56,176 nucleotides of DNA from Candidatus Nomurabacteria bacterium (GCA_027347985.1 DAIEQH010000001.1:1-56176), one strand, 5' to 3'. Counted from the stretch's first letter, positions 3,819 to 56,176 are shown. A program made the numbers and translations. The notes: generated by a model from the letters alone, not told the origin.

Positions 3819-3866
3819 ATATTAACAAATACACAATATCCTATTTCCCCATTAAAAACAACACCT

Positions 3867-4597
3867 TACGGAGGTTTACGGAGGTTAAACCTCCGTATCT
3901 TCTGCAAATTCAATACTATCTAGCCAACTATGTACAAATTCTCTAAAAGAAACTTCATTCTGAAAATAATCTGGGAAAACTGACTTATTTAAGATACTTC
4001 CTTCTACTCTATCAATGCCAGTAAAATCTAGATAACTAGAATAGGTATAAGTTGATAAAAATTCTTTCGCCTTTTCATTATTCTTAACTATTTTTTCTTT
4101 CCATTTTGTTTCAATAAGTTTTATTGGATTTAAGTGAATATAAGCATAGAGATATTTTAAATATTTATCTTCATCAACATGTCTAGCTTTAAAACTTCCC
4201 TGGAACAGAACACCCGATCTTTTATAGACCTTATTAAAATACATAGTATAAGCTGTCATTAGTTTTTGCATAAACAAACTTATACCTCCTTCAACTTTTT
4301 CCTTAAGTAGTAGATGAAAATGATTAGGCATTAAACAGTATGCACCAATATCTACTAAAGTATTTTCCCTCTTCAAATTAAACTTTTCTACGGAGGTTAA
4401 ACCTCCGTAATTTCTAATTTCTATGGAAGAAGAATTATTACAGATAAAAAGAAGGAAAAGAAAACGCTCGTAATCTCTTTTGTTTAAAAAGATTTTTCTT
4501 TTTTCTACTCCCCTATTATAAATATGATAATACTCCTCTGGGGCAAAAACATAATCTCGTGCCATACAAGTATTATACACGGAGGTTTAACCTCCGT
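3867..4597 (-). mobile_element. IS200/RAYT-like single-gene element bracketed by tacggaggt..acctccgta hairpins
   Basis: Hairpins at 3877-3897 (preceded by a half-repeat tacggaggtt at 3867-3876) and at 4579-4597 flank the Y1-transposase-like gene. The overall size of about 730 bp is IS200-like. Confidence 0.6.
3885..4565 (-). CDS. IS200-like / REP-associated tyrosine (Y1, HUH) transposase family protein
   Basis: Motifs YHIYNRGVEKRKIF, CLMPNHFHLLL (HUH) and YAYIHLNPIK. The likely start is MARDYVF at 4565. The stop codon lies inside the 3877-3897 hairpin. Confidence 0.75.
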   Translation of the reverse strand: MARDYVFAPEEYYHIYNRGVEKRKIFLNKRDYERFLFLLFICNNSSSIEIRNYGGLTSVEKFNLKRENTLVDIGAYCLMPNHFHLLLKEKVEGGISLFMQKLMTAYTMYFNKVYKRSGVLFQGSFKARHVDEDKYLKYLYAYIHLNPIKLIETKWKEKIVKNNEKAKEFLSTYTYSSYLDFTGIDRVEGSILNKSVFPDYFQNEVSFREFVHSWLDSIEFAEDTEV

Positions 4598-21505: not shown

Positions 21506-21546
21506 ACACCTCACCCCAGCCCCTCTCCTTAGTAAAGGCGAGGGGT
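21506..21546. repeat. GC-rich palindromic mini-element, intergenic copy
   Basis: cacctcaccccagcccctctccttagtaaaggcgagggg. It belongs to the same family as 30903-30935 and, in reverse orientation, 56061-56096. Confidence 0.7.
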
Positions 21547-30811: not shown

Positions 30812-31363
30812 ATGTCAAGCAAAATAGAATATTCCAATAAAATACTCAAGATTTTGGCAGAAAAACCAGCTATTCCTGTAGATGAAATAAAGAAAAAAAT
30901 TACCACCCCAGACCCCCTCTTCCACAAGGAGGGGGCATATGCCTTAACTCGCTCAATAAAAAATTTGATTGAGTCTGGATGTATTGAAATGATTCAATCT
31001 GACAATAAGAGCTATTTGAAGTTAACCAAAAAAGGAAAAAATAAATTAAACTCCATCAAACTCGAGGGAGATCAAGCACTCGTGTCTAATACTTGGGACG
31101 GTTTGTGGAGAATAATTATTTTAGATATTCCAGAAAACAGAAAAAACGAACGAGAAAGTTTGCGTTATCTTTTAAAGAAAGCTGATTTCGTTTGTATCAA
31201 AAATACTGTTTGGATATCCCCTTTTCCTTACGAACATCTTTTTACAAATATTAAAAAAGATTTAGGTCTCGGTACCGAGCTCATGATTATCGTCACAGAC
31301 AAAATTGACGAAGAAACAAAAAAATATTTTTTAAATAATGTTTTTAAATCCTCCAGCTTGTAA
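30812..31363 (+). CDS. PaaX-family-like winged-helix regulator
   Basis: N-terminal wHTH-like region plus WDGLWRIIILDIPENRKNERESLRYLLKKADFVCIKNTVWISP (PaaX C-domain pattern). It is divergent from dnaK. The 3' end overlaps the convergent ABC gene by 33 nt. Confidence 0.6.
   Translation: MSSKIEYSNKILKILAEKPAIPVDEIKKKITTPDPLFHKEGAYALTRSIKNLIESGCIEMIQSDNKSYLKLTKKGKNKLNSIKLEGDQALVSNTWDGLWRIIILDIPENRKNERESLRYLLKKADFVCIKNTVWISPFPYEHLFTNIKKDLGLGTELMIIVTDKIDEETKKYFLNNVFKSSSL
30903..30935. repeat. GC-rich palindromic mini-element, in frame inside the PaaX-like ORF
   Basis: ccaccccagaccccctcttccacaaggaggggg, encoding TTPDPLFHKEG. Confidence 0.65.
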
Positions 31364-43785: not shown

Positions 43786-43883
43786 CTCTCTCTCTTATTT
43801 AATTTAATTAATTAAATTGTTGGTTGTGCAAATTTTTACTTAGAATACTCTCTCTCTTTACATGTCAAGCTTTATGTGTTTGT

Positions 43884-44592
43884 ACACAAATACATAGGAA
43901 TTTCCTATGTATTTGTGTTATACTAAAGTATATGGCTCTAAGAAAACAAGATTTTGAAATAGATGAGTATTATCATTTATACAATCGTGGCACAGAAAAA
44001 AGAATAATTTTTTTAGATGAACAAGATTATAAACATTTTCTGTTTTTAATGTATATTTGTAATACACAAAAAAGTATTGTTTTAAGAGAAATTGATGAAC
44101 TTTTTGATCGAGGAGAAGCTATCATTGAAATAGGAGCATACTGTTTAATGCCAAATCACTTTCATATTCTCGTGCGTGAAAAAATAGAAAATGGTATTTC
44201 AACATATATGCGTAAATTATTAACTGCTTATTCAATGTACTTCAATAAAAAATACAAGAGATCTGGTAAATTATATGAGGGTGTATTCAAGTCAATTCAC
44301 ATAGATAAAGATAATTACTTAAAATATATTTACTCATATATACATTTAAATCCTGCAAAACTAATAGATAAAAATTGGAAAGAAAAGAAGAAAAAAAATG
44401 TTAATAAACTGTTTAATTATGTTTTTTCTTATCTGTATTCTAGTTTAAGAGAGTATAAAGATAAAAAATATAAAATTATAAATCCATCAAAATTCCCTAA
44501 TTATTTTGAGAACCCCAGTGATCATAAAAATAAATTATTAGAATGGCTTAGTTTTAACAACTTAGAGAATACATAGGAAACTCCTGTGTATT
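43884..44592 (+). mobile_element. IS200/RAYT-like single-gene element bracketed by aatacatagga..tcctatgtatt hairpins
   Basis: A perfect 17+1+17 palindrome is at 43884-43918, upstream of the gene. A related hairpin at 44568-44592 overlaps the stop codon. The 709-bp span is IS200-sized. Confidence 0.6.
43932..44576 (+). CDS. IS200-like / REP-associated tyrosine (Y1, HUH) transposase family protein
   Basis: YHLYNRGTEKRIIF, CLMPNHFHILV and YSYIHLNPAK. It is a paralog of 3885-4565. The start was set at MALRKQ (43932) rather than the track start at 43824. Confidence 0.75.
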   Translation: MALRKQDFEIDEYYHLYNRGTEKRIIFLDEQDYKHFLFLMYICNTQKSIVLREIDELFDRGEAIIEIGAYCLMPNHFHILVREKIENGISTYMRKLLTAYSMYFNKKYKRSGKLYEGVFKSIHIDKDNYLKYIYSYIHLNPAKLIDKNWKEKKKKNVNKLFNYVFSYLYSSLREYKDKKYKIINPSKFPNYFENPSDHKNKLLEWLSFNNLENT

Positions 44593-54765: not shown

Positions 54766-56176
54766 CTATTTTTTTCTTAACGCTCTCGCACGATCAATTT
54801 CAGTTAAATATTTCTTACGAATTCGAACTGATTTTGGGGTTATTTCCAAGTATTCATCTCCATTCATAACCTCAAGACCCCGCTCAATACTCAATATAAA
54901 TGGTGGATTTAGGTATATGGCCTCGTCTGTACCTGAAGCTCTCATATTGGTAAGCTGTTTACCTTTTGTGGGATTTACAGACATATCATCGCCTTTTAAG
55001 ACGTTACCAATAACCATTCCTTCATATATTTCTGTCCCATGCCCAATATACATAATACCACGTTCTTGTAAATTTGCAAGGGAGAAAGCCACAGCCTTAC
55101 CAGAAACCATGGAAATCATAGATCCATATTCACGCTTTTTTATTTCACCTGCGTACTCTTTAAAACCGATAACCCTTGAAGACATTATTCCTTCCCCTTT
55201 CGTATCTATTATAAATTCTCCACGATAACCCAAAAGTCCACGAGTTGGTATATCAAAAATAATTCTAGCAATACCATGTTTCTCTACCATGTCTTTCATC
55301 AACCCTCTGCGTTTGTTTATTTTTTCTATAACCGTACCAGAAGATTCCATCGGCACATCTATCACTAACTCTTCATACGGTTCTGTCTTTACTCCATCAT
55401 GTTCTTTGATGATGACTTCTGGTTGAGAGACTTGCATTTCAAATCCTTCACGGCGCATGTTTTCCAAAAGTATCGCAATGTGTAATTCTCCTCTTCCATA
55501 AATTTTGAAAAATGATGGACCCATCTTGTCGCCCTGGTCCGGAGAAAAATCAACTTTAAGTCCAACATTTATTTCAAGTTCTTTTTCTAATCTTTCTTTA
55601 ATCTGTCGAGAAGTGACAAATTTGCCCTCGCGTCCGGCAAATGGAGAATCGTTTACTAAAAAATTAAGAGACAGAGTCGGCTCATCAATCGCAATATGTG
55701 GGAGTTGCTCTACGCTTTCATCTTCACAAATAGTCTCTCCAATATAAATGTCTGGAATTCCAGATAAAAGCACAATGTCACCAGAAGTCGCTTCCGCTAC
55801 TTCTTTTCTATTTATTCCTTCAAAGCCAAAGAGCTTGGTTATCTTCCCTATTCTAGTACTTCCCTGTTCTCCTTTTATAAAAACCTGACTTCCTCCAACC
55901 ATTTTGCCAGAATAAATTCGTGCGACAGCCATACGTCCTAAAAAGTTGTCATAACCCAAGTTGAAAACTTGAGCAGACATTTTTTTATCTGCATTTAAAG
56001 AAGCAGGTTGTACATGTTCTAATATTACATCCAAAAGTGGAGAAAGACCCCCTCCTTTTTCCTCCCCCTTAGCAAGGGGGAGGTTGGGTAGGGGTAATGT
56101 TTTAAAGGCTACCCCTTCACGTCCAATAGCATAGACAGTTTCAAAATTTGCCTGTTCGTCATGTGCACCTAATTCA
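54766..56176 (-). CDS. typA: Translational GTPase TypA/BipA (N-terminus runs off the window)
   Basis: The track ORF begins at an internal TTG. Own translation continues upstream to the window edge: [59 protein letters not shown]. Domains II-V and the C-terminal domain are typical of BipA. Confidence 0.88.
56061..56096. repeat. GC-rich palindromic mini-element, in frame inside typA
   Basis: cctccccctt-agc-aagggggagg followed by ttgggtaggggt. It is the reverse orientation of the 21506-21546 copy and encodes ..[13 protein letters not shown].. Confidence 0.65.

Follow-up and report, generated by a model that had tools for sequence, protein, structure and literature searches.

The window, by which we mean the whole stretch of DNA that was analysed (56,176 nt, the entire contig C46 of an assembly here called G000), ends within a typA/bipA gene that carries, in frame, a GC-rich palindromic segment. 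The question raised by this locus is whether that segment belongs to TypA or came from elsewhere and, if the latter, what brought it there. A sequence-only reading had proposed that it is an insertion, and that related GC-rich segments are present in a regulator gene and in an intergenic spacer of the same contig. All three lie where that reading placed them, the typA copy having the extent given in Table 1. The assembly comprises 646 kb in 133 contigs (34.7% GC, 87% complete, 5% contaminated), and was compared with its own genus, of more than 100 species, whose genomes measure 0.4-0.9 Mb. Many short contigs of about 0.5-0.8 kb (C1, C15, C91, C98, C102, C130 and others) are high in GC and look foreign to the 35% GC genome, in agreement with the contamination estimate.

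The contig end (position 56176) falls within typA about 80 nt past the palindromic segment, and the N-terminal ~150 codons of the gene have no match anywhere else in the assembly. In element orientation the segment is ACCCCTACCCAA-CCTCCCCCTT-GCT-AAGGGGGAGG-AAAA-AGGAGGGGGT, in which a perfect 10-bp stem (CCTCCCCCTT/AAGGGGGAGG) closes a 3-nt loop and the tails are C-rich on the 5' side and G-rich on the 3' side, as the hairpin-and-tail description given earlier had it. DNA folding gave -15.4 kcal/mol (z = -3.1), with the outer arms ACCCCTACC/GGAGGGGGT also pairing. In an alignment of TypA orthologues from genus and order relatives, 0 of 29 contain the segment at this site. The closest TypA, from G006 (92% identical), reads ..FRKL-EDRDKSED-LSPLLD.. 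there, and at the DNA level the site holds 48 nt in G000 vs 24 nt in G006 and 18 nt in most others. Alignment with E. coli BipA places the extra residues in a loop (residues ~173-185) where the G domain ends, ahead of ..PL..I..HVP.P, which is the position originally assigned to them.

Judged from these alignments, the typA segment is not native to the gene but one copy of a DNA repeat dispersed in the genome, termed type A here; they likewise show that, at the level of DNA, this copy went into a variable surface loop of TypA or was written over it. The copy sits in the one sense frame that gives a hydrophilic, Gly/Pro-rich peptide, and typA therefore stays open. The proposal that the element is tolerated as an extra loop in a translation GTPase stands as an interpretation, the segment being absent from the orthologues and the frame intact. 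An AlphaFold2 model of the TypA fragment, built on a 25-sequence alignment, had a mean pLDDT of 50.5, too low to inform on the loop. Elsewhere in the genus, a different palindrome, GGGGAGTCCTTGACAAGCGTGTCAAGGACTCCCC, also perfect, keeps the frame of typA in G014 (locus L013) and lies some 20 codons farther downstream than the G000 site, and typA of G005 (L020) has a 16-residue insert in the same loop as G000.

The type A repeat is 47-49 nt long and has the form ACCCCTACCCAaCCTCCCCCTT-nnn-AAGGGGGAGG-agaa-AGGAGGGGGT. An nhmmer search with a profile made from five copies identified 10 copies in G000 (E 1e-16 to 1e-11). A 35-nt pattern allowing at most three mismatches also gave 10 matches in G000 and none with the reversed pattern used as control; 22 of 100 other genus genomes gave 1-5 matches, again with no control matches, and G000 is the genome with the most copies. 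The loop varies and the stem is kept, with a variant CCCCCTA..TAGGGGG in which both sides of the pair have changed in compensatory fashion. Type A can be read without a stop codon in three of its six frames. Half of the G000 copies (5/10) are found within long ORFs, namely TypA, UvrA, FtsK, RluD, and a 256-aa protein of no assigned identity, all in the same sense frame and encoding the same 16-residue peptide. Two are found at a DUF559 gene, one forming its C-terminus and the other just upstream, so that the genome-wide count of intragenic copies extends to a sixth. The other three fill very short spacers, between the rpsO stop and the next gene, between rplO and secY, and in a divergent gene pair.

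Most of 30 copies sampled across the genus lie within open frames of at least 100 aa, and most are in the same sense frame, with five in the second sense frame and six in the antisense open frame. G050 and G070 have the element in a shared ~870-aa protein, where it occupies one and the same codon, with opposite orientation in the two genomes. No target-site duplication was found at the flanks of any of the 10 G000 copies, and no Rfam family covers any copy, the only Rfam matches in the window being a tmRNA and three tRNAs. From this distribution the family looks to be active, or homogenised, at the level of DNA and to recur at particular sites, rather than being a one-time inherited relic. Selection in a gene-dense genome has presumably left only those copies that are in frame and located in loops, together with those between genes.

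At the orthologous TypA, UvrA, FtsK, and RluD sites of the closest relatives, type A is absent. The UvrA site has a short loop in G013 and G018 and a different palindrome in each of G006 and G007. We note that the palindromic inserts that three related genomes have in this one UvrA loop are unrelated to one another: type A (G000, C22:10035-10083), AAGCCGGGCTTT..AAAGCCCGGCTT, and CGCCCAGACCTAGGG..CCCTAGGTCTGGGCG (the other two genomes being G006, L100, and G007, L101). In FtsK, type A occupies a linker without changing its length, and G007 has type B-like elements there. In RluD, the copy adds a net 27 nt between a conserved P and KG, and it is common to G000, G081, and G082; the G000 and G081 copies are identical at 48 of 49 nt, though the RluD proteins are only ~61-63% identical. 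It is absent from G006, whose RluD is 74% identical, and from three other genomes. Simple vertical inheritance of the RluD copy was rejected: G006 lacks the copy, yet G081 and G082, which carry it, are not more closely related to G000 than G006 is. Over short stretches, the native loops of RluD and TypA resemble the element tails. As far as the alignments tell, then, the claim of an insertion in TypA holds with one amendment: the element replaces a native variable loop and is not a clean insertion, 48 nt standing for 18-24 nt in typA and the length of FtsK being unchanged.

The remaining two segments of the window form a second type, B, which is shorter than type A and consists of a tail and a CCCCTC-type hairpin. 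The type A profile matched one of them with E = 0.31 and the other not at all, and the two types in the window are therefore related in architecture only; the earlier view of three related segments survives for their shared architecture and fails for membership of one sequence family. The spacer element (-9.4 kcal/mol, z = -4.2) lies between two genes, and the other is in frame in the PaaX-like ORF, so that the frame is preserved in both coding copies, as had been claimed. The PaaX-like segment also behaves as the insertion that it was thought to be: of five relatives, three (G009, G013, G018) have no element at the site, G007 has a similar one, and G006 has a full tail-hairpin-tail of another subfamily. 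No DUF559 cognate to the type B copies of G000 is present in the assembly, which is 87% complete. Paired GC-rich elements, type B plus a CCTCCTCC..GGAGGAGG hairpin, were also seen at C39:4429-4518 and C45:5079-5150, in frame on the element's antisense strand, inside a 627-aa protein, which we take to be PheT-like, and a 538-aa protein.

Table 1. Positions of the repeats, their host genes, and the nuclease and transposase genes in the window (contig C46) and on contig C79.
Feature	Location	Strand	Structure or size	Context or match
RAYT-like Y1 transposase gene	3885-4565	-	own palindrome TACGGAGGTTAAACCTCCGTA at 3866-3898	
Type B-like element	21509-21545	+	CACCTCACCCC tail + CCCCTCTCC..GGCGAGGGG hairpin + T run	between two - strand genes
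PaaX-like regulator ORF	30812-31363	+	183 aa	type B host; PaaX_M 1.4e-18
Type B element	30903-30935	+	ACCACCCC tail + CCCCCTC..GAGGGGG hairpin	in frame in PaaX-like ORF, read TTPDPLFHKEG
RAYT-like Y1 transposase gene	43932-44576	+	own palindrome CACAAATACATAGGAATTTCCTATGTATTTGTG at 43883-43919, partner at 44568-44592	
typA/bipA	54766-56175	-	469 codons, 5' end cut by contig end	E. coli BipA E = 2.7e-118; BipA_C, EFG_C, GTP_EFTU_D2 domains
Type A hairpin repeat in typA	56047-56095	-	C-rich tail, 10-bp stem, 3-nt loop, G-rich mirror tail	in frame, 16-residue peptide
DUF559 gene, the only one of G000	C79:7417-7821		134 aa	PF04480, 9.9e-32

A candidate partner for the repeat is found on another contig, C79, where the DUF559 gene of G000 is bracketed by two type A copies (C79:7417-7867). 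The upstream flank is a type A "tail + hairpin" that ends 7 nt before the ATG of the gene, with GGAGG in its G-rich arm ~10 nt from the start codon, and the downstream flank is a full type A that provides the last 17 codons of DUF559. To our knowledge, DUF559 has a nuclease fold and is not known as a transposase. A survey of PD-(D/E)xK proteins groups it with Vsr and an intron homing endonuclease and says nothing further, and our literature search for DUF559 found no paper describing hairpin-flanked DUF559 cassettes. Against PDB, the G000 protein matched 3hrl (7e-17) and, weakly, 3r3p, the Vsr-like homing endonuclease I-Bth0305I (0.03). The closest public homologs are from metagenome-assembled genomes of Candidatus Nomurabacteria and Paceibacterota, and the host is therefore treated as a bacterium of the candidate phyla radiation (CPR), which it probably is.

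In G000 the cassette is placed between metG and tatD. This junction is empty in G006, G013, and G018, where 1-5 nt separate the metG stop from the tatD ATG. G081 has the same type A-flanked cassette at metG/tatD, with a DUF559 protein that is 76% identical, and the closest public homolog, 79% identical, has the same type A-flanked arrangement. DUF559 cassettes with other hairpins occupy the junction in G001, G003, G011, and G043, and G007 (L123) has a RAYT-like cassette there, containing three TTACACAGGGTTCCCCTGTGTAA copies. The metG/tatD junction has the appearance of a hot spot for insertion. Type A flanks accompany DUF559 proteins at 100, 79, and 76% identity, and other hairpins accompany those at 50-64%. 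In 30 further DUF559 loci of the genus, there is usually a "C-rich tail + hairpin" before the gene and a "hairpin + G-rich tail" after it. The flanks of the genus cassettes form terminal inverted repeats, whose sequence differs between cassettes. The DUF559 domain together with its GC-rich flanks is also found in frame inside LeuRS (G068 L075, G060 L079, G050 L080, G097 L087) and lies immediately ahead of TTRPDT, a motif that we take to be the start of the editing domain, the open frames being 870-1145 aa long.

The linkage was counted with a generic hairpin, CCYCYCC-N5-9-GGRGRGG with at most one mismatch, searched within 150 nt of each locus. It is present at 25 of 31 DUF559 genes of the genus (on both sides of 15) and at 52 of 78 DUF559 loci from many phyla (both sides of 31), a set that includes Geobacter, Sphingobium, Hymenobacter, Bacteroidota, Terriglobia, cyanobacteria, and other CPR groups. 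None of 28 typA gene ends and none of the eight RAYT-like genes of G000 has it within that distance, and its background in G000 is 0.01 per 300 nt. The best inverted repeat between upstream and downstream flanks exceeded the 95th percentile of mismatched pairs in 35 of 74 DUF559 loci. Per genome, the median number of hairpins is 1, 5.5, 13, and 30 for 0, 1, 2, and at least 3 DUF559 genes, respectively. Hairpins correlate with DUF559 count at rho 0.57, or 0.35 after subtraction of two hairpins per gene, and, over 100 genomes, with Y1-transposase count at rho 0.47 (partial 0.35 given DUF559), all of these values being uncorrected for kinship. Since hairpin counts track both genes, the genome-level association does not single out DUF559. 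We rejected the expectation that every type A-bearing genome has a type A-flanked DUF559: DUF559 adjoins a type A copy in only 2 of 22 such genomes (G000 and G081), and 6 are without any DUF559 match. Eight genomes with 9-23 hairpins have no DUF559 match. With many solo-repeat genomes lacking a cognate DUF559, it follows that solo repeats often outlive, or never needed, the cognate cassette.

We consider it probable that the dispersed repeat is a miniature of the DUF559 cassette and that it spreads through nuclease-initiated breaks and repair copying, the two taken as a joint explanation. The 48-nt type A unit would then be a gene-less miniature of a ~450-nt hairpin-ended cassette, in which "tail + hairpin" and "hairpin + tail" flank a small gene for a Vsr-like, PD-(D/E)xK DUF559 nuclease. 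A hairpin is its own inverted copy, and so the two hairpins of the cassette stand in direct repeat as well; were the gene lost from between them, what remained would be precisely tail-hairpin-tail. This collapse model predicts a simple mirrored end downstream, whereas G000 and G081 have a complete tail-hairpin-tail there. DUF559, as a candidate partner that may move the repeat, would most likely act by nicking or cutting at or near structured ends or targets, and repair synthesis would then copy the cassette or the miniature into the break. Breakage and repair copying of this kind would account for loop replacement, for the lack of target-site duplications, and for recurrence at the same codon. 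The insertion reading itself stands.

Three other explanations have to be set against this one. That the Pro/Gly-rich peptide is a native or convergent loop of TypA under selection, and the DNA palindrome incidental to it, would agree with the kept frame and with a hydrophilic, loop-like peptide, but is highly improbable, given that the segment is found in none of the 29 orthologues, that identical nucleotides occur in spacers and unrelated proteins, and that other genomes use other frames and the opposite strand, which yield different peptides. A REP/RAYT-type system, in which the repeat would be a REP-like hairpin moved in trans by an IS200-like Y1 (RAYT-like) transposase and the DUF559 genes would be landing sites or passengers, draws on the eight Y1_Tnp genes (seven above the Pfam cut-off) in the 646 kb of G000, two of them in the window and each palindrome-flanked in REPtron fashion. 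The correlation of hairpin with Y1 counts given above, the lack of target duplication, which is like IS200/IS605-type chemistry, and a GTAG lying 4 nt 3' of the hairpin on the G-rich strand also agree with it. We nevertheless regard it as unlikely. No C-arm/G-arm hairpin is found within 150 nt of any of the eight RAYT-like genes, each of which has its own, different and unrelated palindrome (TACGGAGG.., CTTGGGAGCCGAGCTCCCAAG, GTCAAAGCTCGG.., and others); the GTAG is 5' of the hairpin in canonical REPs and 3' here; and 25 of 100 genus genomes have no Y1 match, including G070, G074, and G101 with 9-16 hairpins.

The last explanation dispenses with a dedicated enzyme: structure-prone repeats (hairpin or intrastrand triplex) would spread and homogenise by template-switching and ectopic gene conversion, with DUF559 linked to them in some other way, the hairpins serving as terminator or ribosome-binding elements or DUF559 acting as a host repair nuclease on such structures. 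Replacement of loop sequence with FtsK length unchanged would fit such a process, as would the resemblance of native RluD and TypA loops to the element tails over short stretches, the solo repeats of many genomes without DUF559, and the GGAGG of the G-rich arm ~10 nt before the DUF559 ATG; work on TMECO repeats, too, found genomic instability but no mobility gene (PMC4666352). Yet hairpin-gene-hairpin is present or absent as a block at metG/tatD, the DUF559 sequence and the type of flank change together (type A at 100, 79, and 76% identity, other hairpins at 50-64%), the DUF559-hairpin linkage holds across many phyla, and DUF559 with flanks in frame in LeuRS is explained by neither a terminator nor a ribosome-binding role, so that spread with no dedicated enzyme appears doubtful to us.

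How the nuclease-linked repeat relates to known systems can be seen by comparison with five of them. TMECO/PIT repeats, for which BoxC is an older name, are a class that has been described since the 1990s without a mechanism. Holder et al. (2015) reported 23 copies of these G/C-rich intrastrand triplex motifs in E. coli K-12, always intergenic, linked to local instability and with no mobility-related gene nearby (PMC4666352). Both they and type A have a C-rich arm, a short loop, a G-rich arm, a 3-5-nt spacer, and a G-rich tail mirroring the G arm; in type A, the tail GGAGGGGGT mirrors the arm AAGGGGGAGG, and all 10 copies fit on one or both strands. Both are dispersed, patchy among close relatives, and sometimes arranged as inverted pairs. 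The published pattern, CCCTCNCCC-N3-6-GGGNGAGGG-N3-GGGNGAGGG, has 0 exact matches on both strands of G000. Whereas TMECO repeats are intergenic, type A is half translated in housekeeping genes, with 5/10 copies in long ORFs and a sixth as the DUF559 C-terminus, and it brackets a nuclease gene; the structure computed here is hairpin folding only. In E. coli K-12 (L206, NC_000913.3 1351039-1351830), ycjD, annotated as DUF559, ends ..RRSPSP* in a degenerate C/G hairpin. About 180 nt downstream of it, before fabI, CCCTCGCCC-CTCTG-GGGAGAGGG-TTA-GGGTGAGGG fits the published TMECO pattern, and the interval contains part of the ycjD 3' end in a second copy.

In behaviour the closest match is with the Rickettsia palindromic elements (RPEs), palindromic repeats that are translated in frame in many unrelated functional genes (PMC10969869), as type A is in TypA, UvrA, FtsK, RluD, and one protein of no assigned identity. 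RPEs are ~100-150 bp long, occur in AT-rich alpha-proteobacterial genomes, and have no known partner gene (PMC10969869); type A is set apart from them by description, since it is 47-49 nt, GC-rich, and of a CPR lineage, and shares its ends with a nuclease cassette. REP/REPIN-RAYT systems (REPtrons) are likewise short dispersed GC-rich hairpins that flank a single small nuclease-type gene on both sides without target-site duplications. Here, however, the flanked gene is a PD-(D/E)xK DUF559 gene and not an HUH Y1 transposase gene, the copies are largely intragenic, the GTAG of type A is 3' of the hairpin on the G-rich strand (..GGAGGTTGGGTAGGGGT) with CTAC on the 5' side, and the repeat flanks 0/8 Y1_Tnp genes of G000 within 150 nt. 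With MITEs, type A shares terminal inverted repeats in common with a larger gene-carrying element, the tail and hairpin that bracket DUF559; it differs in replacing loop sequence and in lacking target-site duplications at the 10 copies. In the larger element the gene is DUF559, of a nuclease fold that is not known as a transposase.

Homing endonuclease genes, free-standing or carried by introns, provide the last comparison, I-Bth0305I being a Vsr-like (EDxHD) homing endonuclease and a precedent for a mobile Vsr-fold nuclease (PMC3239194). The metG/tatD junction, filled in G000, G081, G001, G003, G011, and G043 and empty in G006, G013, and G018, likewise exhibits a gene of Vsr fold that occurs at one fixed position either whole or not at all and recurs across lineages. 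The differences are that no intron or intein is involved, that the ends are structured inverted repeats with gene-less miniatures, and that the nuclease is a predicted one whose match to 3r3p is weak (E = 0.03). A broader proposal, which we advance tentatively as possible though rather unlikely, is that DUF559 proteins are the mobilising enzymes of undescribed cross-phylum selfish elements, comprising nuclease cassettes with hairpin/triplex ends and gene-less 35-50-nt miniatures that would be copied into breaks without target duplications and could take the place of surface loops in essential proteins with the frame kept; to the same class of element would belong the TMECO/PIT/BoxC repeats of E. 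coli, with YcjD as partner.

The physical link with DUF559 provides a concrete candidate partner for a repeat class that has lacked a mechanism, and since E. coli K-12 has one DUF559 gene, ycjD, beside such a repeat, the idea is open to ordinary genetics. Even if the nuclease link fails, type A would be a clean RPE-like case outside Rickettsia. TypA, UvrA, FtsK, and RluD, which are conserved proteins of translation, repair, and division, tolerate and repeatedly acquire repeat-encoded loops in minimal CPR genomes, and these loops affect annotation, alignment-based phylogeny, and structure prediction for CPR organisms.
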